From a virus (Duplodnaviria; Heunggongvirae; Uroviricota; Caudoviricetes), in the IMG/VR virus record IMGVR_UViG_2711768010_000017: a stretch of DNA of 45,246 nucleotides. One strand, written 5' to 3'. Positions 542-45,246 of the stretch are shown here, piece by piece; the first letter of the stretch is position 1; each line of letters opens with the position of its first letter. The translations under genes and the position numbers were made by a program. Under the pieces are notes generated by a model that saw only the letters and a list, made by a program, of their open reading frames with translations, was not told where the DNA came from and ran no database searches.

Positions 542-1579
542 TTAACGCTTATCCGCCACCAGTTTGAGCGCGTGTTCCAGCACATTAATGTCTGCACCCG
601 CTTTATGGGCATTTTCACTTAAATAACGCCGCCACTGCCGCGCGCCAGGAATACCCTGGAACAAGCCCAACATATGCCGGGTAATATGGCCGAGATACGT
701 CCCCTGGCTGAGTTCACGCTCAATGTACGGATACATGGCGCGCACTACCGCCACCGGATCGGCATCGGTATCCGAGGAACCAAAGATCTCCCGGTCTACC
801 GCCGCCAGAATACCCGGATTCTGATACGCCTCGCGCCCGACCATCACGCCATCCATATGTTGCAGGTGTGCTTTGGCCTCTTCCAGCGACTTGATACCAC
901 CGTTAATCGACATTGTCAGATGCGGAAAGTCACGCTTCAGTTGATACACACGCGGATAATCGAGTGGCGGGATTTCACGGTTTTCTTTCGGGCTTAACCC
1001 CGAAAGCCAGGCTTTACGTGCGTGGATGATAAACATCTCACACTCGCCTTTGCCGGAAACGGTGTTGATGAAATCGCAGAGAAATTCATAGCTGTCCTGG
1101 TCATCGATGCCAATACGCGTTTTCACCGTCACTGGAATCGACACCACATCGCGCATCGCTTTCACGCAGTCGGCAACCAGCTGCGCATTACCCATCAGAC
1201 ACGCACCAAACATGCCGTTCTGCACCCGGTCAGACGGGCAGCCGACATTCAGGTTGATCTCATCATATCCACGCGCTTCTGCCAGCTTCGCACACTGTGC
1301 CAGCGCCGCCGGATCGCTACCGCCGAGTTGCAACGCTACCGGATGTTCTTCTTCACTGTACGCCAGGTAATCACCTTTACCGTGAATAATCGCCCCTGTG
1401 GTCACCATTTCGGTATACAGCAACGTATTGCGGGAAAGCAGACGCAAGAAATAGCGGCAATGTCTGTCCGTCCAGTCGAGCATAGGAGCAATGCTAAACC
1501 GAGAACTCCAGTAAGCGCCAGTTTTTTCAGGCATCACGCTGGTTTGATTAGTTTTCTGTGTTTCAGGATTATCGTGCAT
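542..1579 (-). CDS. dusA: tRNA-dihydrouridine synthase A
   Basis: 345-aa ORF with conserved Dus core ([26 protein letters not shown]); the prophage integrase starts 88 bp beyond its 5-prime end. Confidence 0.9.
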
Positions 1580-3296: not shown

Positions 3297-3848
3297 ATGC
3301 ATGACAATATTTGGTTTACATATAAAGCACGTATCCAAGCGCACCATCGACTAGAATGGCTTGAAAAACACTCTCAATTTATCCTCGTTTGGTATGCTAT
3401 ATTGAGTGCGGTACTTTCAATTGTAACGTTGCGATTTCCAAAGGTTCTAGGAGATAATACAGATGTCGTTGCGGCGATACTTTCAGTGGCTCTACTGGGT
3501 ATTTCTCTGATCGTATCTAACCTAGATTTTCGTGGTCGAGCAATAGCCATGAGAAGGAATTATATTGCACTACAGCGACTCTATTTTGACATTACCACCA
3601 GTCAACAGTTATCTCTTGAACAGAAAGAAAAATATTTTAATTTGCTCAATGAGGTTGAGAATCACCGTGACATAGATGATAAAATTTCAAGGGTAACTCA
3701 AGTTGGACTTAAGACGAGGATCCCCACACAAAAAGAAAAAATAATTGTTATTTTATGGATATTACTTCGAATATTTATTACTGCCGCACTTTATATACTC
3801 CCATTAATATATCTTTGGATTGACTATGACTGCAAGCAGAATTTTTAA
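3297..3848 (+). CDS. Membrane protein with three predicted TM helices; candidate effector partner of the downstream RT
   Basis: 183-aa ORF with AAGGA RBS; hydrophobic segments FILVWYAILSAVLSIVTL, VVAAILSVALLGISLIVSNL and C-terminal IIVILWILLRIFITAALYILPLIYLWI; AT-rich; overlaps RT start by 23 nt. Confidence 0.7.
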   Translation: MHDNIWFTYKARIQAHHRLEWLEKHSQFILVWYAILSAVLSIVTLRFPKVLGDNTDVVAAILSVALLGISLIVSNLDFRGRAIAMRRNYIALQRLYFDITTSQQLSLEQKEKYFNLLNEVENHRDIDDKISRVTQVGLKTRIPTQKEKIIVILWILLRIFITAALYILPLIYLWIDYDCKQNF

Positions 3849-5196
3849 AAAGTCATTCTCGAAAAAAAATCTTCTAAAAGTATACTCTGAAAAAATCAAA
3901 GAATCAGGAGCGATTGGCATAGATCGGATTCGCCCATCAAAACTTGATTTGACAATAAAAAATGAGATCACTTTCATTTTTGAAAAGGTTAATTCTGGCA
4001 ATTACAAATTTACAGCATATAAAGAAAAATTAATATCTAAAGGCGCTAACTCTACACCCAGACAGATTTCCATACCAACTGCTAGGGACAGAATTACTCT
4101 TAGAGCTCTCTGTGAATGCCTTACGGAAATATATCCTAAGTCCAGATTAAAACTACCACATACAGTAATTGACTCATTGAAAGAAGCATTAAACAACAGT
4201 CTATATGCTGAATATGCAAAAATAGATCTTAAAAGTTTCTATCCTTCAATTGAACATAAATTGATAATTAATGCAATAAAAAATAAAATTAGAAAAAAAG
4301 AAATTAGACAGTTAATAACATCATCATTAATCGTGCCTACTGTAAGTGGAACCACAGGAAGCAAAGGTATCCCTAATAATACCAGAGGAGTACCTCAGGG
4401 ATTAGCGATATCAAACATTTTAGCTGAAATATCACTATCTAATTTCGATGATGAAATCAATAAAATGCATGACATATGGTACATGCGATACGTTGATGAC
4501 ATTCTTATTTTAACACCAAAATATCAAGCAACAAAAATAGCTTCTCATATCATTGATAAGCTTCAATCATTAAATTTAAACCCACATCCATTAAATGAAG
4601 AGAACTCAAAATCCAAAGTAGGCAGCTTGGATGAAAGTTTCAACTTTTTGGGCTACCACATAAAAAATCGAGAATTATTGATAAAACATGAGAGCATTCT
4701 TAGATTTGAGTCATCCTTAGCAAAAATTTTTACTGCATATAGACACGCTCTACTACAAGCTAAAAATAAGCGCGATAAAGAACGAGCTGTTGCATATTGT
4801 CAGTGGAAACTAAATCTTAGAATTACGGGATGTGTGTTTGAAGGTAAACGATTGGGATGGGTATCGTACTTCTCACAAATAACGTCAACAGCTCAACTTC
4901 GAGCTGTTAATCATACGATCAATAATCTTATCCGCCGATTCGGCCTTTCATCAGAAATAAAACCAAAGTCTTTGATTAAAACTTTCTATGAACTCCGCAG
5001 GGGTAGAGCGGAGACTTTTAAATACATACCTAACTTTGACAATCTACATATATCTCAGAAACGAGAAATTGTTTCTATGTGGATAGGGAAAGAGAATGAA
5101 AAAAAACTTAGCAATAGTGAAATAGAGAGAAAATTTAAATTTAAAATTGCGAAATCAGTAAAAGAGCTTGAAGAGGACATTTCAGGGATATCATAG
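3826..5196 (+). CDS. Reverse transcriptase (defence-associated type, retron-like or UG/Abi-like; family unassigned)
   Basis: RT motifs in order: GIDRIR, RQISIPTARDRITLRAL, KIDLKSFYPSIEH, GVPQGLAISNILAEI, YMRYVDDILIL (YxDD), FNFLGYHI; about 200-aa C-terminal extension; first ATG at 3826 (track start 3820 is TTG). Confidence 0.85.
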   Translation: MTASRIFKKSFSKKNLLKVYSEKIKESGAIGIDRIRPSKLDLTIKNEITFIFEKVNSGNYKFTAYKEKLISKGANSTPRQISIPTARDRITLRALCECLTEIYPKSRLKLPHTVIDSLKEALNNSLYAEYAKIDLKSFYPSIEHKLIINAIKNKIRKKEIRQLITSSLIVPTVSGTTGSKGIPNNTRGVPQGLAISNILAEISLSNFDDEINKMHDIWYMRYVDDILILTPKYQATKIASHIIDKLQSLNLNPHPLNEENSKSKVGSLDESFNFLGYHIKNRELLIKHESILRFESSLAKIFTAYRHALLQAKNKRDKERAVAYCQWKLNLRITGCVFEGKRLGWVSYFSQITSTAQLRAVNHTINNLIRRFGLSSEIKPKSLIKTFYELRRGRAETFKYIPNFDNLHISQKREIVSMWIGKENEKKLSNSEIERKFKFKIAKSVKELEEDISGIS

Positions 5197-30551: not shown

Positions 30552-31604
30552 TTATTTCCCCACCAGCTCGTTTATCTCTTTCACTGTCTGATTAAACCGC
30601 TCTGACTCAAGCTCAACACCTAAGGCCCGACGCCCCAGCGCCATTGCTGCTTTTATTGTGGAACCGGATCCCATAAAAAAATCAGCAACCAGATCACCTG
30701 GTCGACTACTGGCATTGATTATTTGCCTGAGCATATCCGCCGGTTTCTCACACGGATGTTTCCCCGGGTAGAACTGAACGGGTTTATGCATCCAGACATC
30801 GGTATAAGGCACGGAGACTGATACGGAGAAATAGCGCCGGAGAGATTTAAACTCATCCAGCAATTCAGAATATTTACGATTCAGTGAATCATAAGATGCC
30901 ACCAGCTGGTGGTGTGGTTGTTCCAGTTGTTGTTCCTGAAACTTCTCTGCCGCTATACGGGAAAACAGTGCCTGTAACTTCCGATAGTCAGCCTCATTCG
31001 GCAACTGCCACTGACTGGCACCAAACCAGTGGGAAACCATATTTTTCTTACCTGTGGCTTCGGCAATTTGTTTTGCCGTTATACCCAGTTCGGCACGAGC
31101 ATCCCTGAAATACGATATCAGCGGTGCCATTATGTGCTGTTTGAGTTCCCTTTCTTTTGCCGCATAGCCGTCACTTTTGCCGCGATATGGCCCCTGGTAA
31201 TGTTCAGCAAACAGAACGCGCTCTGTGGCAGGAAAATATGCGCGCAGACTTTCTTTATTACACCCATTCCAACGTCCGGACGGCTTCGCCCAGATGATAT
31301 GGTTAAGCACGTTGAAACGTTCACGCATCATGATCTCAATATCAGATGCCAGGCGATGCCCACAGAACAGGTAAAGGCTTCCGGCAGGTTTCAACACCCG
31401 CCAGAACTGGGCCAGACAGTGGTCCAGCCACTTAAGGTAATCTTCGTCCCCTTTCCACTGATTGTCCCAACCGTTGGGTTTCACCTTGAAGTAAGGCGGA
31501 TCGGTAACAATCAGGTCAATGGAATCATCAGGCAGGGACTGAATAAAATGCAGGCAATCAGCGTTGATTAAATCAACACTGTTTATTTTTACAGTATTTT
31601 TCAT
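30552..31604 (-). CDS. DNA methyltransferase (N6-adenine/N4-cytosine, beta-class motif order)
   Basis: DLIVTDPPY near the N-terminus and FFMGSGST (FxGxG) near the C-terminus. Confidence 0.85.
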
Positions 31605-39212: not shown

Positions 39213-39772
39213 GCGTTAGTTTCTCCACAGACACAAAACGCCACGACGCCCGGAGCTGCACACTCGCGGGCGTCACTCTTTTCTGGAGCGCAAAAGATTT
39301 TGTAGACCAGTGCTGCATGCTCCTGGAGCTTCGAAATTGACAGATACAACTCATCATTAATTGCTGTCTGCTCGTGTGGCTCCACTACCCCATCTTCGAT
39401 TGCCGAACGAATCTGCTTTGAGTAACTCCCGATCTGTTCGATGACTTCCAGCAGGCGCTGGTTTATATCGGCGTTCTCTACTTCCTCAATTTCAGGAAGC
39501 GATACAAACACCCCACCAGCAGACTGTGCGACAGCATCCGCAATGTAGTGAGTGCCAGCCGCGCGCTGTAAAATCATTGCCCATCCCAGCGGGAAAATCT
39601 GATCGCCATCTGCACGAAGGCGGTTGAATAAAGCGTTCTCTGTTACATCCAGCCACTCAGCAGCTTCAGCGTAACCCCCCGGCAACGCCGCGATAGTTTT
39701 TCTGACAGCTTTCACGTACCACTCAGGCTGTTTTTCTACTTTCCAGTGATGCTTACCCACGGTTAGCCTCAT
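39209..39772 (-). CDS. Hypothetical early regulatory protein (CII/YdaT-like position)
   Basis: 187-aa ORF directly downstream of cro; ATG start; acidic central region. Confidence 0.45.
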   Translation of the reverse strand: MRLTVGKHHWKVEKQPEWYVKAVRKTIAALPGGYAEAAEWLDVTENALFNRLRADGDQIFPLGWAMILQRAAGTHYIADAVAQSAGGVFVSLPEIEEVENADINQRLLEVIEQIGSYSKQIRSAIEDGVVEPHEQTAINDELYLSISKLQEHAALVYKIFCAPEKSDARECAAPGVVAFCVCGETNA

Positions 39773-39803
39773 CGTTCTGTGGTTAAAAATTGAAGGTGTT
39801 CTG

Positions 39804-40004
39804 TTAATCTTTCGGATAGATATCCGGTCTTAAGTCAGATTTCGTAATTGCACCTGACGTGCATTGCTCAAGTTTTTTAGCCAGCACAAAACTGGCTTTT
39901 TTATAACCATTGAAAACCAGCCGTAAGTAGCCTGGTGTTGAGCCAACTTTTCCGGCCAACTCACCCTGCTGTTCTTTGGTTAAAGAGTCCCAATACGCTT
40001 TCAT
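39804..40004 (-). CDS. Cro-like HTH regulator
   Basis: 66-aa product MKAYWDSLTKEQQGELAGKVGSTPGYLRLVFNGYKKASFVLAKKLEQ...; divergent from cI across a 90-bp operator region. Confidence 0.65.
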   Translation of the reverse strand: MKAYWDSLTKEQQGELAGKVGSTPGYLRLVFNGYKKASFVLAKKLEQCTSGAITKSDLRPDIYPKD

Positions 40005-40094
40005 ACAATATGTACCTCCGGTATACATATTACATGATTGAGATGAACCTTCAAGATACTTGTACCTTATCGGTACAAAGGTTTTAATTTCTTT
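40005..40094. promoter_or_regulatory. Immunity operator/promoter region (OR-like) with TGTACC-type palindromic sites
   Basis: atgtacctccggtatacat and cttgtaccttatcggtacaag palindromes between divergent cro and cI. Confidence 0.5.
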
Positions 40095-40769
40095 ATGAAA
40101 ACAGTCCATGACATCCGGCGGTCTAACGCCAGAAAACTGAGAGATGGTGTTGGCGGGAATTCTTCCTTTGCCACCATGATTGATCGCGAGCCAACCCAGA
40201 CCAGCAGGTTTATGGGAGATGGTGCAACTAAAAATATCGGTGACAGCATGGCACGGCACATCGAAAAATGTTTCGACCTGCCTGTCGGATGGCTTGATCA
40301 AGAACACCAGACAACGAACATCACAAAAAAACCTGACGTTTCAATCACTAACAAACAAATAACGTTAGTCCCTGTCATATCATGGGTACAGGCCGGAGCA
40401 TGGAAAGAAGTTGGCTATTCTGAGGTTGATTTGAGCACAGCAGAAACTTATCCCTGCCCTGTACCCTGTGGCGAAATGACTTATATCTTGCGGGTGATTG
40501 GTGATTCAATGATTGATGAGTACCGCCCGGGAGACATGATTTTTGTTGATCCTGAAGTCCCTGCCTGCCACGGTGACGACGTTATTGCATTGATGCACGA
40601 TACAGGCGAAACCACCTTCAAGCGGTTGATAGAAGATGGAACACAGCGTTATCTCAAAGCATTAAACCCAAACTGGCCTGAGCCTTACATTAAGATTAAC
40701 GGTAATTGCTCTATAATTGGTACAGTGATTTTCTCAGGAAAACCAAGAAGATACATAATAAAGGCCTAA
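40095..40769 (+). CDS. CI-type repressor (HTH plus S24 LexA-like autopeptidase domain)
   Basis: 224 aa; N-terminal HTH-like region ending LPVGWLD, C-terminal S24 motifs (VIGDSMIDEY, GDMIFVDP). Confidence 0.85.
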   Translation: MKTVHDIRRSNARKLRDGVGGNSSFATMIDREPTQTSRFMGDGATKNIGDSMARHIEKCFDLPVGWLDQEHQTTNITKKPDVSITNKQITLVPVISWVQAGAWKEVGYSEVDLSTAETYPCPVPCGEMTYILRVIGDSMIDEYRPGDMIFVDPEVPACHGDDVIALMHDTGETTFKRLIEDGTQRYLKALNPNWPEPYIKINGNCSIIGTVIFSGKPRRYIIKA

Positions 40770-40781
40770 TCAATATTTATA

Positions 40782-40804
40782 ACCTGCTTCGGCAGGTTTT
40801 TTTA
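40782..40804 (+). terminator. Rho-independent terminator after cI
   Basis: acctgc-ttcg-gcaggt hairpin followed by TTTTTTTAT. Confidence 0.6.
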
Positions 40805-40807
40805 TAC

Positions 40808-40836
40808 TTGACAATGTACCTTTGGGATACATAATG
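40808..40836 (+). promoter_or_regulatory. PL-like early-left promoter with overlapping operator
   Basis: TTGACA (40808-40813), 16-17 bp spacer containing atgtacctttgggatacat (operator-like), then CATAAT. Confidence 0.45.
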
Positions 40837-41273
40837 TATCTAAAAGAAACACAGCACAGGCAAGATTAAACAAAATTTGGTTGTAACACGGCGTATGGCA
40901 CATGCGTCGTTAGCGGTCTGGGGACGTTAAAGGGGACAATCCACTCCTTGCTCGGGCAAACAAACCAGGTAGCCGGAATGTGCAAGTCAATGATGATGCT
41001 GATAAGACGCCTAACCAGCGTGGCGATTCGGTTTGACGCCTGGGAAGAGACCAGGGTGCAACGATGAGGACATTTATGGAACCGCGACAAAGTGTGGTGC
41101 CGTAACTGGCTAAGTGCTCTCAGCGTTGTGGTGAATGCGCAGGCTGATGCGCGAAAGACATTGCAGCTAATGCGGAAAAGAGCTGTTCGGCGGGGCAATT
41201 AAACGCCCGTGAGAGTCTGAAATAACCGCAAGCCGGAGATCAGCACCGGTCACCACAACAGCCACTGCTTTGG

Positions 41274-41318
41274 CGGTACCAGTTTGTACACTTGCTTCCG
41301 GCTGGTACCGCTCTTTTT
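41274..41318 (+). terminator. Terminator-like hairpin in the early-left leader
   Basis: 9-bp perfect stem cggtaccag/ctggtaccg with 19-nt loop, followed by CTCTTTTTA. Confidence 0.4.
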
Positions 41319-41407
41319 ACAAAACAGAGAAGAGCATCACCGGACGACGGGCTCATAACCAAATCCATCCGGGCGGCTGCCACCGCAGGTGTTCTTCTCT
41401 GTTTTGT
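41319..41407 (+). other. Long inverted repeat (15-bp perfect arms, about 59-nt loop) in the early-left leader
   Basis: acaaaacagagaaga (41319-41333) and tcttctctgttttgt (41393-41407). Confidence 0.4.
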
Positions 41408-41455
41408 GGAGAAACCAACCGACCTTGCAGGGTCGATATGATTAGGAGCAGCAAA

Positions 41456-41818
41456 ATGGCTAGCGAACGCAGTACTGATGTGCAGGCATTTATTGGGGAG
41501 CTGGACGGCGGCGTATTTGAAACCAAAATCGGCGCAGTTCTCAGTGAAGTCGCTTCCGGTGTGATGAACACGAAAACCAAAGGTAAGGTCTCACTCAACC
41601 TGGAAATCGAACCATTTGATGAGAACCGTGTGAAAATCAAACACAAACTCTCATATGTTCGCCCGACTAACCGCGGGAAAATTTCCGAAGAAGACACCAC
41701 CGAAACGCCGATGTATGTCAATCGCGGTGGTCGCCTGACTATTCTGCAGGAAGACCAGGGACAATTACTGACTCTTGCCGGTGAACCTGACGGAAAACTC
41801 CGCGCAGCAGGTCATTAA
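41456..41818 (+). CDS. Hypothetical early-left protein (YfdP-like by recollection)
   Basis: 120-aa ORF from ATG with AGGAG RBS 7 nt upstream; track ORF 41270..41818 is an over-extension. Confidence 0.5.
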   Translation: MASERSTDVQAFIGELDGGVFETKIGAVLSEVASGVMNTKTKGKVSLNLEIEPFDENRVKIKHKLSYVRPTNRGKISEEDTTETPMYVNRGGRLTILQEDQGQLLTLAGEPDGKLRAAGH

Positions 41819-41883
41819 TATCGTTCTTAATTAACCGATTATTTATCTCATCACTGAATATCTTTATATAGTGAGGACTTATT

Positions 41884-42708
41884 ATGTCTCAGAACTTAGA
41901 CGCAACCGCAATTAATCAAATCCATGCCCTTATTTCTGCTCAGGGTGTTAATGAAATTATCAGTAAGATTGGTGCCGATGCTGTGGCATTGCCTGAGAAT
42001 TTCCGCATTCATGATCTGGAAAAATTAAATTTAAATCGTTTCCGTTTCCGTGGTGCGCTTTCCACTGCCAGCATCGATGACTTTACTCGTTATTCTAAAG
42101 ATCTTGCAGATGAAGGCACCCGCTGCTTTATCGATGCTGATAATATGCGTGCCGTCAGTGTTCTTAACCTGGGTACTATTGATGAACCAGGTCACGCAGA
42201 TAACACCGCCACTCTCAAACTGAAAAAGACAGCTCCGTTCTCTGCTCTGTTGTCTGTTAATGGCGAGCGTAACTCCCAGAAGTCACTGGCAGAATGGATT
42301 GAAGACTGGGCCGACTACCTTGTGGGCTTTGATGCTAATGGTGACGCCATTCAGGCAACCAAAGCGGCTGCGGCGATCCGTAAAATCACAATTGAAGCGA
42401 ACCAGACCGCTGATTTTGAAGATAATGACTTCAGCGGCAAACGCTCCCTGATGGAGTCTGTCGAAGCGAAGACCAAAGACATTATGCCAGTGGCATTTGA
42501 ATTTAAATGCGTTCCGTTTGAAGGTCTGAAAGAACGTCCGTTTAAATTACGCCTCAGCATTATCACTGGCGATCGTCCTGTACTGGTTCTGCGCATTATT
42601 CAGCTGGAAGCGGTACAGGAAGAAATGGCTAACGAATTTCGTGATCTGCTTGTTGAGAAATTCAAAGACAGCAAAGTAGAAACCTTTATTGGTACTTTCA
42701 CCGCCTGA
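41884..42708 (+). CDS. Hypothetical prophage protein (DUF2303/YfdQ-like by recollection)
   Basis: 274-aa ORF with GAGGA RBS; no catalytic motif recognised. Confidence 0.55.
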
Positions 42709-42884
42709 TTTCATTACTGCAAATGCCCCTGCGGGGGCATTTACGGAAGCGATAATTTTAACTATTGCCGCCCCTATAAAGAACCATTAAACAATAACGT
42801 GACGTAGCTATTGATAGTAAATGAAGCACTTGCAAAATAATTGCATTGCGTATATATACACACATGTGTTGTATTACAGCGATA

Positions 42885-43679
42885 ATGGTAAAGCAAATGA
42901 TTAACTCTGAAGCAATTGAGCAACTAATGTGGCTATGGTCCTTATTTGACATTAAATTCTTATCTATTCTTGCCGCTGCCTTCACTATATATTTTGGCGT
43001 GCAAAAAATATCAAAAAAGGTGACAGTGTCGTATTCAGCAAATGCAAGTAGAATATATGACATGCATATATCAACCATAATCCTGAATAATAAAAGAGAT
43101 AATGCAATTGCTATATCTTCAATCAATATGGAGGTTGAAGGTAAAGGGATACTACAAGTTATTAAATTTGACTCCCCTCTTCTTTTAAAGAACTATGATT
43201 CTTTAAAAGTTGAACCACCAAAATTTAGCAGCCTTTACAATAATGATGGCGTAGTTAAGTTAGATATTTCTGATAAGTTTCATTTTTATATAATCACGAC
43301 ATCTGGAGATGAAATTAAATGTATTTCTGAAAATAAATATGTAGCACCAAACATGGAAAACAAAATAGCTACAGACATAAGAAAATTTAATGGCATTGTC
43401 TTAACAAACAGAATGTCTTATATTTTTTTCTATGCAAATGACAACGGAGAGAAATACTGCATAATAGATGTTTCATTGTTCATAAATGGTGACAACCCAT
43501 TTCATTTTAATTTTTTAAAAGAAGATGAATTAAGAGATTTTTCTAGCATCCTTATTAGTTACGGATATCACCAACAGTTTAAAAGTTATGCATTGTTTAA
43601 AATAGACAACCATCTTGCTCCTTCTTTGGTTTTAAATAAATCAATGATAGAAAATAATATTATTGAAATGAATAAGTAA
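42885..43679 (+). CDS. AT-rich N-terminally membrane-anchored protein (candidate exclusion/abortive-infection moron)
   Basis: About 264 aa from first ATG; N-terminal TM helix LMWLWSLFDIKFLSILAAAFTIYFGV; strongly AT-rich compared with flanks. Confidence 0.55.
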   Translation: MVKQMINSEAIEQLMWLWSLFDIKFLSILAAAFTIYFGVQKISKKVTVSYSANASRIYDMHISTIILNNKRDNAIAISSINMEVEGKGILQVIKFDSPLLLKNYDSLKVEPPKFSSLYNNDGVVKLDISDKFHFYIITTSGDEIKCISENKYVAPNMENKIATDIRKFNGIVLTNRMSYIFFYANDNGEKYCIIDVSLFINGDNPFHFNFLKEDELRDFSSILISYGYHQQFKSYALFKIDNHLAPSLVLNKSMIENNIIEMNK

Positions 43680-43715
43680 CTCACCGGGTGCAGCCGGTTA
43701 TGATGGAGAAATGAT

Positions 43716-43997
43716 ATGAATACCTTGTTTTTACTGATGGCTGAATTCAATACCCCAAACATTGAACTCTCAGCAGTTAGTCAAAAATACTTTGGTATGA
43801 GTCCAGCCACAGCAGAAGCAAAAGCAAACGCTTGTAAGTTGCCTGTACCTACATATCGCATCGGTACATCACAAAAAGCAAAACGTTGCATCAATATTCA
43901 GGATCTTGCGGAATACATAGACAAAAGACGAGAAGAAGGACGTATCGAGTGGGAACAGGTCAGAACAGGCAAACAGAAGGGCAAAGAACATCACTAA
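43716..43997 (+). CDS. Small DNA-binding regulator (PrtN/pyocin-activator-like by recollection)
   Basis: 93-aa ORF with GGAG RBS; basic C-terminus; followed by a terminator. Confidence 0.45.
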   Translation: MNTLFLLMAEFNTPNIELSAVSQKYFGMSPATAEAKANACKLPVPTYRIGTSQKAKRCINIQDLAEYIDKRREEGRIEWEQVRTGKQKGKEHH

Positions 43998-44025
43998 AGA
44001 AAAAACCCGCCTAAAGGCGGGTTTT
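43998..44025. terminator. Bidirectional rho-independent terminator between convergent transcription units
   Basis: cccgcc-taaa-ggcggg hairpin flanked by A-run and T-run. Confidence 0.65.
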
Positions 44026-44044
44026 CAAAAAGCACCAGCTATGA

Positions 44045-44218
44045 TCATGCTGCTTTGCGACGACGAAGCTTACCCTGCTGCTCTTTACCAGAGACAGTAG
44101 CGTGAGTGAACGCATTAGGAGCAGCCTTCATCAGAACTTCAACAGCAGCACCCATACCTGCGAATGCTTTCATTGTGTCGAACTTAACCTGTGGCTTGGT
44201 TGCTTTTTGATCTTCCAT
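44045..44218 (-). CDS. Small basic protein (57 aa), below the ORF-track length cutoff
   Basis: ATG with GGAG RBS 7 nt upstream; product MEDQKATKPQVKFDTMKAFAGMGAAVEVLMKAAPNAFTHATVSGKEQQGKLRRRKAA. Confidence 0.4.
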   Translation of the reverse strand: MEDQKATKPQVKFDTMKAFAGMGAAVEVLMKAAPNAFTHATVSGKEQQGKLRRRKAA

Positions 44219-44257
44219 AGAAAACTCCAGAAGCTATACCGAAACAATTCCTGTTGT

Positions 44258-44677
44258 TTACTCATCATCAATAGATGATACGCAATATTTATTTTTAAAT
44301 TTAAGGTTCTTTGGCGTAACTTCATCAGATATATCAAAACCGTCCAGAATTCTATTGAATGTAGCTTCTGGCATATCATCATGAACGGAAATCTCACCCG
44401 ATCGCTGCTTTCTAACCATGTTATCCACTCGCCAAATTATAGCTTCAGCGTAAACAACATAACTTGGATGCTTGATAAAGCGATGATCACCAGAATTCAA
44501 GACGCAAGACGGATCGTGGGGGACACCATCCTTGATACTAGAAATATTAACAACTAAAACACAATAACAATCGTTAACGGGGTAATAAACAGGATCATTA
44601 CAAATCACATGAAGATGATTGCATGGCCCAGTTGGGGCAAGCACAGTTCCTTTCCTGTATGGCTGATAATCCGTCAT
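44258..44677 (-). CDS. Hypothetical 139-aa protein, candidate toxin partner of the upstream Panacea-like protein
   Basis: ATG overlaps the stop of the upstream gene (ATGA); Cys/His-rich segment CNHLHVICNDPVYYPVNDCYC; no recognisable family. Confidence 0.5.
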   Translation of the reverse strand: MTDYQPYRKGTVLAPTGPCNHLHVICNDPVYYPVNDCYCVLVVNISSIKDGVPHDPSCVLNSGDHRFIKHPSYVVYAEAIIWRVDNMVRKQRSGEISVHDDMPEATFNRILDGFDISDEVTPKNLKFKNKYCVSSIDDE

Positions 44678-45246
44678 GATAATTGCAAAGAAAATTCCTT
44701 AAGTTTCTGAGATTCTTCCATTTTGCCAATTATACGATTAGCCTCATCCTCGCTTTTACCCTCACTGATCAGCATTTCTTTCAGGTCTATAGGCTTACGA
44801 GAATTGCCAGGATTGTGCCACTCTGGACAAACGCTTTCTAAATGCGTCATGTTTGCGAGATCAAATCGGTTCATATGCCCATACAGAGAATAGATTTCAT
44901 CTAAAATCCGGATATCTGCACGGCTCAACTCATCAAAGACCTCGTCTGCATCCATTTCCCTCGGATCTGAACGCAACAACACATCATGCCCGTTCGTCTC
45001 TATCAGGTTGTACCAGTAGTCACCAATACCTTCAGCCTTACCACGAATCAAGTTCAGCGTATTCGACATGACTGGACCAAATTTCATAGAGTAAAGGCTA
45101 TCTTCGCCGATCATCCTGCCATGCTTCAAAATCGACTTGCGGTTAGACAGATAGAGCAGCTTCATCAATTTCAGATATGCCATGCGCCCACCTCGCTTAA
45201 GAAGTAGGTATGCAGCCATTTGAGCTACTTTTTCTTCGCAAAACAT
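44674..45246 (-). CDS. Panacea/DUF4065-like (SocA-like) protein, candidate antitoxin; 5-prime end at window edge
   Basis: MAYLKLMKLLYLSNRKSILKHGRMIGEDSLYSMKFGPVMSN resembles the Panacea antitoxin domain signature as recalled; ORF reaches the window boundary. Confidence 0.55.
   Translation of the reverse strand: MFCEEKVAQMAAYLLLKRGGRMAYLKLMKLLYLSNRKSILKHGRMIGEDSLYSMKFGPVMSNTLNLIRGKAEGIGDYWYNLIETNGHDVLLRSDPREMDADEVFDELSRADIRILDEIYSLYGHMNRFDLANMTHLESVCPEWHNPGNSRKPIDLKEMLISEGKSEDEANRIIGKMEESQKLKEFSLQLS

Follow-up and report, generated by a model that had tools for sequence, protein, structure and literature searches.

What does an extremely AT-rich gene at the excision end of a lambdoid prophage do for its carrier? 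The question is raised by a gene, here called X, in a stretch of viral DNA of 45,246 nt (IMG/VR record IMGVR_UViG_2711768010_000017, hereafter the window), for which an original prediction from the sequence alone had proposed a membrane-anchored protein in the position where lambdoid phages carry exclusion or abortive-infection genes. Elements of this kind, AT-rich cargo genes that sit beside the excision module of a prophage and may serve in exclusion, are well known; neither the protein family to which X belongs nor its architecture has been characterised, and we found neither in the annotation and defence libraries searched. The reading that we prefer, to which we would give slightly less than an even chance, is that X may be a membrane-tethered prophage cargo protein used in phage-phage conflict, either as a self-contained defence or as a superinfection-exclusion protein.

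Gene X and its reading frame

The open reading frame that contains X extends from 42846 to 43679 on the plus strand, and the gene was originally called at 42885-43679, with a product of 264 aa. There is indeed a gene here, but that start lies four codons too far upstream: the RefSeq/PGAP annotation (WP_047654657.1) begins at the ATG at 42897, the full-length match to phrog_14996 (E 2e-178) begins at residue 5 of the 264-aa product and ends at residue 264, and homologues share an N terminus of the form M-I/L-N. Because these three lines agree, we place X at 42897-43679 (plus strand), with a product of 260 aa.

The coding sequence has a GC content of 29.0% (GC3 26%) and is the lowest-GC stretch of 783 nt anywhere in the window (z = -3.0); by comparison, yfdQ has 45.5%, xis 41% and the window as a whole 49.7%. 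The earlier description of X as much more AT-rich than its neighbours is thus borne out, at 29.0% against 41-46% in the flanks. Isoleucine makes up 12.7% of the product, serine 9.6%, asparagine 9.2%, and leucine and lysine 8.5% each. A megablast search of 5,426 complete E. coli genomes found X, identical or nearly so, in 99 (nearly all at 99% identity or more), and in these 99 complete genomes the frame is intact. Since it is kept in 99 genomes, has homologues in other genera (Citrobacter, Klebsiella, Raoultella and Pseudomonas) and shows dN/dS ratios of 0.24-0.46, X is a real gene rather than a chance ORF.

A cargo cassette in a variable slot

The window is a segment of the E. coli chromosome with a complete lambdoid prophage integrated at dusA (542-1579, minus strand), and the integrase gene lies at 1668-2765 on the plus strand; E. 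coli strain A14 (NZ_CP028760), a natural lysogen like the O25b:H4 strain (NZ_CP015085), carries the locus in identical form, and its copy terminates in a dusA fragment. At the right end the plus strand carries, in order, the gene for an e14-type S24 repressor (cI, 40095-40769), its terminator, a promoter-like site, yfdP, yfdQ (41884-42708; DUF2303, Pfam E 8e-93, also annotated in RefSeq), X, the excisionase gene xis (43716-43997; PrtN family, phrog_1300) and a bidirectional terminator. The original prediction had put X in the early-left operon, in the sieB/rex slot. It does lie on the pL side of the immunity region and in the same direction as cI, but the slot is a different one: X stands 2.1 kb beyond cI, past yfdP and yfdQ, as the last gene before xis, a position that corresponds to the variable 'ea'-type, xis-proximal end of a pL operon.

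X forms part of an AT-rich cassette of about 930 bp (approximately 42753-43683, plus strand), which consists of some 140 nt of private upstream DNA and the coding sequence, and which has yfdQ as the conserved gene on its 5' side. Its edges were located by pairwise alignment with a sibling dusA prophage, LR-46 (L045), that has the same xis/Panacea end as the window. The left junction falls at about 42753-58, directly 3' of the hairpin that follows yfdQ, and the right junction at about 43683, at the X stop codon, where the conserved xis leader CCGGGTGCAGCCGGTT (43684-43715, plus strand; also present in LR-46) begins, with a weak hairpin ACCGG-N6-CCGGT. The final 59 nt of the yfdQ module were found by megablast in about 2,600 of the 5,426 complete E. 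coli genomes, and the match to these other yfdQ prophages ends at window position 42757/8.

In LR-46 the slot is filled by yfdR, two hypothetical genes and a 3'-5' exonuclease gene, a block of 2.3 kb that the X cassette replaces in the window. Other contents include a PAPS-reductase/SspD-like gene, a gene for a DUF4365 protein and yfdS/T-like genes, and one prophage has an annotated anti-phage dCTP deaminase further toward the prophage end. The PrtN-type xis is present in 742 genomes and the complete xis-toxin-Panacea module in 193; among copies of X that are 93-100% identical (22 IMG/VR contigs) the order yfdQ-X-xis is always kept, and the DNA beyond xis is variable. Since sibling prophages fill the same yfdQ-xis slot with other genes, X is one of several alternative cargoes there. 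Of the features by which morons, autonomous cassettes of promoter, gene and terminator, are recognised, the cassette has a distinct base composition and sharp insertion boundaries; it has no terminator of its own downstream, the first strong one lying after xis. An IS element interrupts the yfdQ-X region in two genomes, E89 (IS1X2; NZ_CP121157.1, 4392488-4394284) and FCI1 (IS50R; NZ_CM172811.1, 4589066-4592825).

Probable transcription with the excisionase gene

Downstream of the cI terminator (40781-40798) lies a candidate sigma-70 promoter (40808-40835, plus strand; TTGACA-16-CATAAT, 11 of 12 positions), recognised by consensus match only, which is likely to be pL and would drive yfdP, yfdQ, X and xis. 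The hairpin after yfdQ (42722-42743, plus strand; AAATGCCCC-TGC-GGGGCATTT, ΔG -19.4 kcal/mol, z -3.65) is strong, belongs to the conserved yfdQ module, LR-46 included, and is labelled 'terminator' in phage Ayreon. With a poor U tail, and standing 5' of yfdR in siblings as well, it is no boundary particular to X. Promoter-like hexamer pairs in the DNA 5' of X (42811-42886, plus strand; TTGATA-16-CAAAAT and TACACA-18-GATAAT, 9 of 12 matches) are not above chance, with 9 observed against 11.0 +/- 3.0 in shuffled sequence, and a comparison of the upstream regions of homologues, which share nothing, found no conserved promoter that accompanies the gene.

X and xis lie on the same strand, 36 nt apart. 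The interval holds no convincing terminator, its hairpin (ΔG -8.7, z -0.72) being like those of shuffled sequence, whereas a strong bidirectional intrinsic terminator follows xis (44001-44026; ΔG -16.2, z -5.2) and closes the X-xis unit; an Rfam scan of 39500-45246 gave only sub-threshold matches, around this xis terminator. X and xis are thus most likely read on a common transcript. Sharing a transcript with the excisionase argues against strong constitutive expression of X in the lysogen, since with only a weak hairpin between the two genes a promoter active in the lysogen would express the excisionase as well. These signals favour a transcript that starts at pL on induction or infection and includes xis, perhaps supplemented by one from a promoter of X's own, and lysogenic expression of X is somewhat disfavoured.

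The same signals bear on what we regard as the main rival to the defence reading, namely that X is a delayed-early accessory gene of the lytic cycle rather than a lysogen-expressed defence, read from pL along with xis only once the phage has been induced or has infected a cell, with a product that acts on the host, whether in membrane or host takeover, in counter-defence or in the exclusion of competitors during the lytic cycle. In favour of it, X has a pL-like promoter upstream and own-promoter signals at the level of chance, and it precedes xis at a short distance on the same strand, with no convincing terminator in the interval; homologues of X lie 24-36 nt 5' of three unrelated types of xis, and sibling slots hold yfdR, an exonuclease gene and a PAPS-reductase-like gene. 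That siblings fill the slot with lytic-cycle enzymes (5'-deoxynucleotidase, exonuclease) also counts against a defence role for X. A lytic-cycle role is harder to reconcile with the many relatives that lie far from any xis, in the P2 hotspot, behind a TIR gene, beside QatA or umuDC, or in non-phage islands, with the P2 gpA-gpQ locus, whose known cargo includes exclusion genes expressed in the lysogen (PMC9122126), and with the private AT-rich upstream DNA that accompanies X. On balance we think this alternative unlikely, while still giving it appreciable weight; if it is correct, X would exemplify a membrane protein that comes into play when a prophage is induced.

Relatives of X and their neighbourhoods

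A phmmer search of 1.84 billion representatives returned 151 clusters (50% identity) at E <= 1e-3; a word-indexed search found only 11, in E. coli/Shigella, Citrobacter and Klebsiella. Family members are almost all 235-275 aa long and align end to end, and they are lower in GC than their flanks in every locus examined. A tblastn search of the 50,697 phage records of INPHARED gave no detectable relative of X in any isolated phage.

Relatives with 47-49% identity lie 24-36 nt 5' of two other, unrelated xis-int modules (L023-25 and L028), so that with the window the family stands directly 5' of three unrelated xis or xis-int modules. Members also occur in nin-like regions (L004-7, L026/27): the Klebsiella relatives (45%) follow an MT-A70 methylase gene in such a region of a podovirus-type prophage, and the 41% relatives of L026/27 directly behind RmrT/RmrA (PADLOC E ~1e-26 to 9e-26 and 6e-107, respectively). 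Relatives with 42% identity adjoin a gene for a DUF4145 protein, and several adjoin integrases (L049, L050-52), that of L049 being also beside an AbiLi-like ATPase (E 5e-25). One relative is about 1 kb from QatA (L032, E 1e-288), one lies 36 nt behind the gene for a TIR_2 protein (L044, E 1e-21), and others are beside umuDC/SRAP cargo, in non-phage islands or in uninformative surroundings.

In four Pseudomonas P2-like prophages (L002, L003, L036 and L037) a relative with 25-28% identity adjoins the portal gene and follows, at 41-49 nt, the gene for a 455-aa AAA_16/NB-ARC-like NTPase, for which PADLOC gave a weak match to a candidate only (PDC-S59, E 1e-7). These relatives occupy the gpA-gpQ locus, between replication gene A and portal gene Q, which is an experimentally shown hotspot of anti-phage systems (Rousset et al. 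2022, PMC9122126). When L036 (2479-4649) is compared with L037 (4584-6759), the two NTPases share 91% of their residues and the two X homologues 64%, a difference that would fit an interface under conflict and fast evolution of X, or else module swapping. In L003 an RnlA/RnlB toxin-antitoxin pair (352-1751) lies a few kb from the NTPase-X pair, in the same variable region.

As a raw count, roughly half of some 17 distinct contexts include an association with defence genes, and nothing defence-like was seen in L004-7, L023-25, L028, L031 or L033-35. The family is mobile, and its members occupy accessory positions in mobile elements. The exclusion or abortive-infection role originally suggested for X gains indirect support from these defence-gene neighbours and from the P2 hotspot positions.

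The pairings with NTPase and TIR genes suggest a second alternative, that X is the membrane effector of a two-component system, activated in some genomes by a sensor, a STAND-like NTPase or a TIR protein, and that here, as an orphan, it is either inactive or driven by another element, for example the DRT UG17 system of the same prophage or a chromosomal sensor. The pairing is operon-like, with gaps of 36-49 nt, both behind the NTPase of the four Pseudomonas prophages and behind the TIR gene of L044, and the effectors of TIR, CBASS and retron-type systems are usually TM proteins. Most members, however, among them all of the approximately 25 enterobacterial clusters, have no conserved partner gene; a TIR neighbour was observed in a single locus, and in the Pseudomonas pair the X homologue has changed far more than the NTPase, as would be unusual if it were a generic effector. 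We therefore consider an orphan effector improbable. The likeness of X to Thoeris-like TIR and STAND-AAA_16 systems lies in the position of some relatives directly behind a TIR or STAND-like NTPase gene; it differs from them in having no recognised SLOG, Macro or SAVED-type ligand domain, one TM segment rather than two or more, and no sensor gene next to it in the window.

Architecture and membrane topology

The hydropathy profile of X shows one hydrophobic stretch and no second, at residues ~12-35 with Kyte-Doolittle values of 1.6-1.7 over 19 residues, and the single N-terminal TM helix of the original prediction is supported both by this profile and by an AlphaFold2 model, in which a helix spans residues 4-39 and leads into an all-beta body. 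The codons of the predicted membrane-spanning helix, to which the charge bias of the family also points, are at 42930-43001. In the model, which was built from an alignment of 11 sequences (mean pLDDT 80, pTM 0.63), the helix is followed by a predicted Ig-like beta-sandwich domain at residues ~42-141 (43020-43319), which contains the motif N65-K-R-D68-N as well as P94, K98 and S111. A nearly invariant C142 (43320-43322) comes immediately after this domain, and a poorly modelled linker (residues 145-151) leads to a C-terminal beta/alpha subdomain at residues ~156-259 (43362-43673; all coordinates on the plus strand). An N-terminal membrane anchor of the kind found in Sie-type proteins is thus predicted for X and is a feature present across 135 family members.

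The remote-homology and structure-prediction checks proposed for X had different outcomes. No homology to proteins of known structure was detected, a profile of 71 family members matching none of the PDB sequences even at E <= 10, and the fold was recovered as a generic Ig-like sandwich only; no catalytic or pore-forming fold was recognised. The scores of X against Ig-like sandwiches carried on an N-terminal helix (archaeal type IV pilins, archaellins and FlaF/FlaG) indicate a shared fold class only, as does its likeness to the lamin Ig fold and to Spo0M/arrestin-like sandwiches, and the C-terminal subdomain is unmatched. A pilin-like reading of X was rejected, there being no pilin leader or cleavage motif and an acidic N-flank.

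The predicted helix has an acidic N-flank and a basic C-flank (QKISKK), and the family shares this asymmetry. Across the 135 members, the 12 residues on the N-side of the helix contain on average 0.54 K+R and 1.50 D+E, those on the C-side 2.33 K+R and 0.27 D+E, and the C-side is the more basic in 115 of the 135. According to the positive-inside rule the basic flank of a membrane helix faces the cytoplasm, from which we infer that the body of X is cytoplasmic and its short acidic N terminus outside. Neither the basic n-region of a Sec signal nor a lipobox is present across the 135 members, and the acidic N-flank rules out a classical signal peptide.

The opposite orientation (N-in/C-out) would make X a periplasm-facing Ig-like protein that blocks a receptor or injection step in the manner of the Sie2009/Ltp type, or that alters the envelope. 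An Ig-like sandwich on an N-terminal helix does resemble archaeal pilins, FlaF/FlaG and many extracytoplasmic domains, and the lactococcal sie genes sit at a similar prophage-end position; set against the strong bias toward a cytoplasmic body in 115 of the 135 members, the acidic N-flank, the missing n-region and lipobox, and the one single cysteine conserved family-wide, a periplasmic location seems quite improbable.

Conservation and selection

In the 135 full-length members N65 is conserved at 99%, P94 at 98%, S111 at 93%, K37 at 92% and C142 at 91%; K98, Y179 and G194 follow at 87% each and D68 at 86%. The family signature consists of the motif N-x-K/R-D-K/N together with a TM helix that is followed by a basic K-K-I/L-G-x-K, and X conforms to it in its length (the family range being ~240-270 aa), its TM helix with basic flank, the motif, P94, S111 and C142. 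Alleles that differ at 7% of residues give dN/dS ratios of 0.33-0.46 and nearer alleles 0.24-0.30, and X is under purifying selection. That X is functionless or silenced AT-rich passenger DNA, as the lack of a recognised domain and a GC content of 29% might suggest (such extreme values in E. coli usually mean H-NS silencing), is the least probable explanation of all, given a length and architecture kept across some 150 clusters and several genera, the near-invariant N65, P94, S111 and C142, dN/dS below 0.5 and a frame intact in 99 complete genomes.

A group of 350-aa proteins with 25-26% GC, encoded in low-GC prophages (13 IMG/VR contigs; for example L053 2578-3630, L054 4896-5918 and L055 4872-5924), may be a sister family. 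These proteins are X-like over the N-terminal ~100 residues only and have extra N-terminal hydrophobic segments; their genes come after umuDC/SRAP cargo in two of the three loci inspected (L053 and L054).

Comparison with known systems

Public sources all label X as hypothetical. Pfam gave no match above cut-off (one Ig-like match was sub-threshold, at 16 bits against a cut-off of 28), NCBIfam gave none, and the sole PHROG match was to the unannotated phrog_14996; a Pfam scan of 71 members added two isolated weak DUF matches only. The PADLOC-DB v2.0.0 library of 2023 contained no match to X at E <= 1, nor to five relatives at E <= 0.01-0.1. A literature search with the accession and the PHROG identifier found nothing, a survey of STAND proteins makes no mention of X-like TM partners (PMC13581612), and a preprint on defence hotspots does not cover lambdoid xis slots. 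GiPD474 (PMC12724215) was considered as a counterpart and rejected, being an ATPase-domain protein.

With lambda sieB and rexAB, X has in common a place on the pL side of a lambdoid immunity region and a predicted membrane location. It differs from them in not being adjacent to cI/N, in having one TM segment rather than several, and in showing no similarity to SieB or RexA/RexB in Pfam or PHROG. Membrane-anchored superinfection-exclusion proteins of prophages include the lactococcal Sie2009 family, HK97 gp15, P22 SieA and T4 Imm. Like these, X is a small, single, AT-rich accessory gene of a prophage, with a predicted N-terminal anchor and a place beside the integration/excision module; unlike them, it is larger (260 aa), has a body predicted to be cytoplasmic, and shows no sequence similarity. 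The cargo of the P2 gpA-gpQ locus is linked to X through the distant homologues in Pseudomonas, but the phage of the window is lambdoid and integrated at dusA, the validated systems of that hotspot are other proteins, and the Pseudomonas homologues have an NTPase partner where X of the window has yfdQ and xis as its neighbours.

A role for X in phage-phage conflict, as defence or superinfection exclusion, draws on its cargo signature, the mobility of the family, the defence neighbourhoods, which in the prophage of the window include a Panacea toxin-antitoxin pair near X and a DRT system at the opposite end, the divergence of X relative to the NTPase, purifying selection and the charge-based topology. 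X would on this basis be a horizontally acquired, single-pass inner-membrane protein with a cytoplasmic body of some 220 residues, made up of an Ig-like beta-sandwich and a small beta/alpha subdomain. The cytoplasmic domain might detect some part of a phage that is entering or developing in the cell, and the anchor would either keep X at the site of genome entry, giving exclusion, or damage the membrane once X oligomerises, giving abortive infection. A broader proposal, which we put forward as doubtful though plausible, makes the family a widespread class of anti-phage proteins that has so far gone unrecognised, single-pass 'tethered Ig-like' proteins that face the cytoplasm. In enterobacterial lambdoid prophages they would be able to act on their own; in Pseudomonas and other hosts they would be the fast-evolving partners of STAND-like NTPases or TIR proteins. 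Their site of action would be the cytoplasmic face of the membrane, either at genome entry or at the assembly of virions and the lysis machinery.

About 2% of complete E. coli genomes have the gene, ST131-type and Shigella sonnei strains among them. If it protects against phages, a compact single-gene family of 0.8 kb would be added to the catalogue of defence systems; one TM helix with a cytoplasmic Ig-like body would be a fold and architecture absent among characterised systems, and the yfdQ-xis junction of dusA and KplE1/SfV-like prophages would be marked as a cargo hotspot. Such protection would be of relevance to predicting host range in phage therapy.

Other cargo of the same prophage

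At the opposite end of the prophage from X, right after the integrase gene, lies a low-GC pair (3297-5196, plus strand) consisting of the gene for a 183-aa SLATT_5 protein with two TM segments (PADLOC RTasSLATT, E 2e-57) and an overlapping gene for a 458-aa UG17 reverse transcriptase (RT_UG17, E 1e-158), which by these matches is a DRT-type defence system. About 600 nt from X, the minus strand carries a 190-aa antitoxin with a Panacea/SocA domain (44674-45246; Pfam PF13274, E 2e-18, and RefSeq annotation) and a putative toxin of 139 aa (44258-44677; phrog_19071, without a Pfam domain), whose genes overlap by 4 nt; the pair (44258-45246) is probably a PanA-type toxin-antitoxin system placed between xis and the attachment site. 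The last position of the window is the start codon of the Panacea antitoxin gene.

Close to the lysis genes is a further AT-rich cargo gene, for a low-GC type II-like N6/N4 DNA methyltransferase (30552-31604, minus strand; PADLOC MTase_II, E 3e-152). The interval of some 690 nt from the cI terminator to yfdP (40770-41464) has no gene annotated in RefSeq, and siblings have in this place small or frameshifted ORFs, or a ParA gene (L045 and L048).
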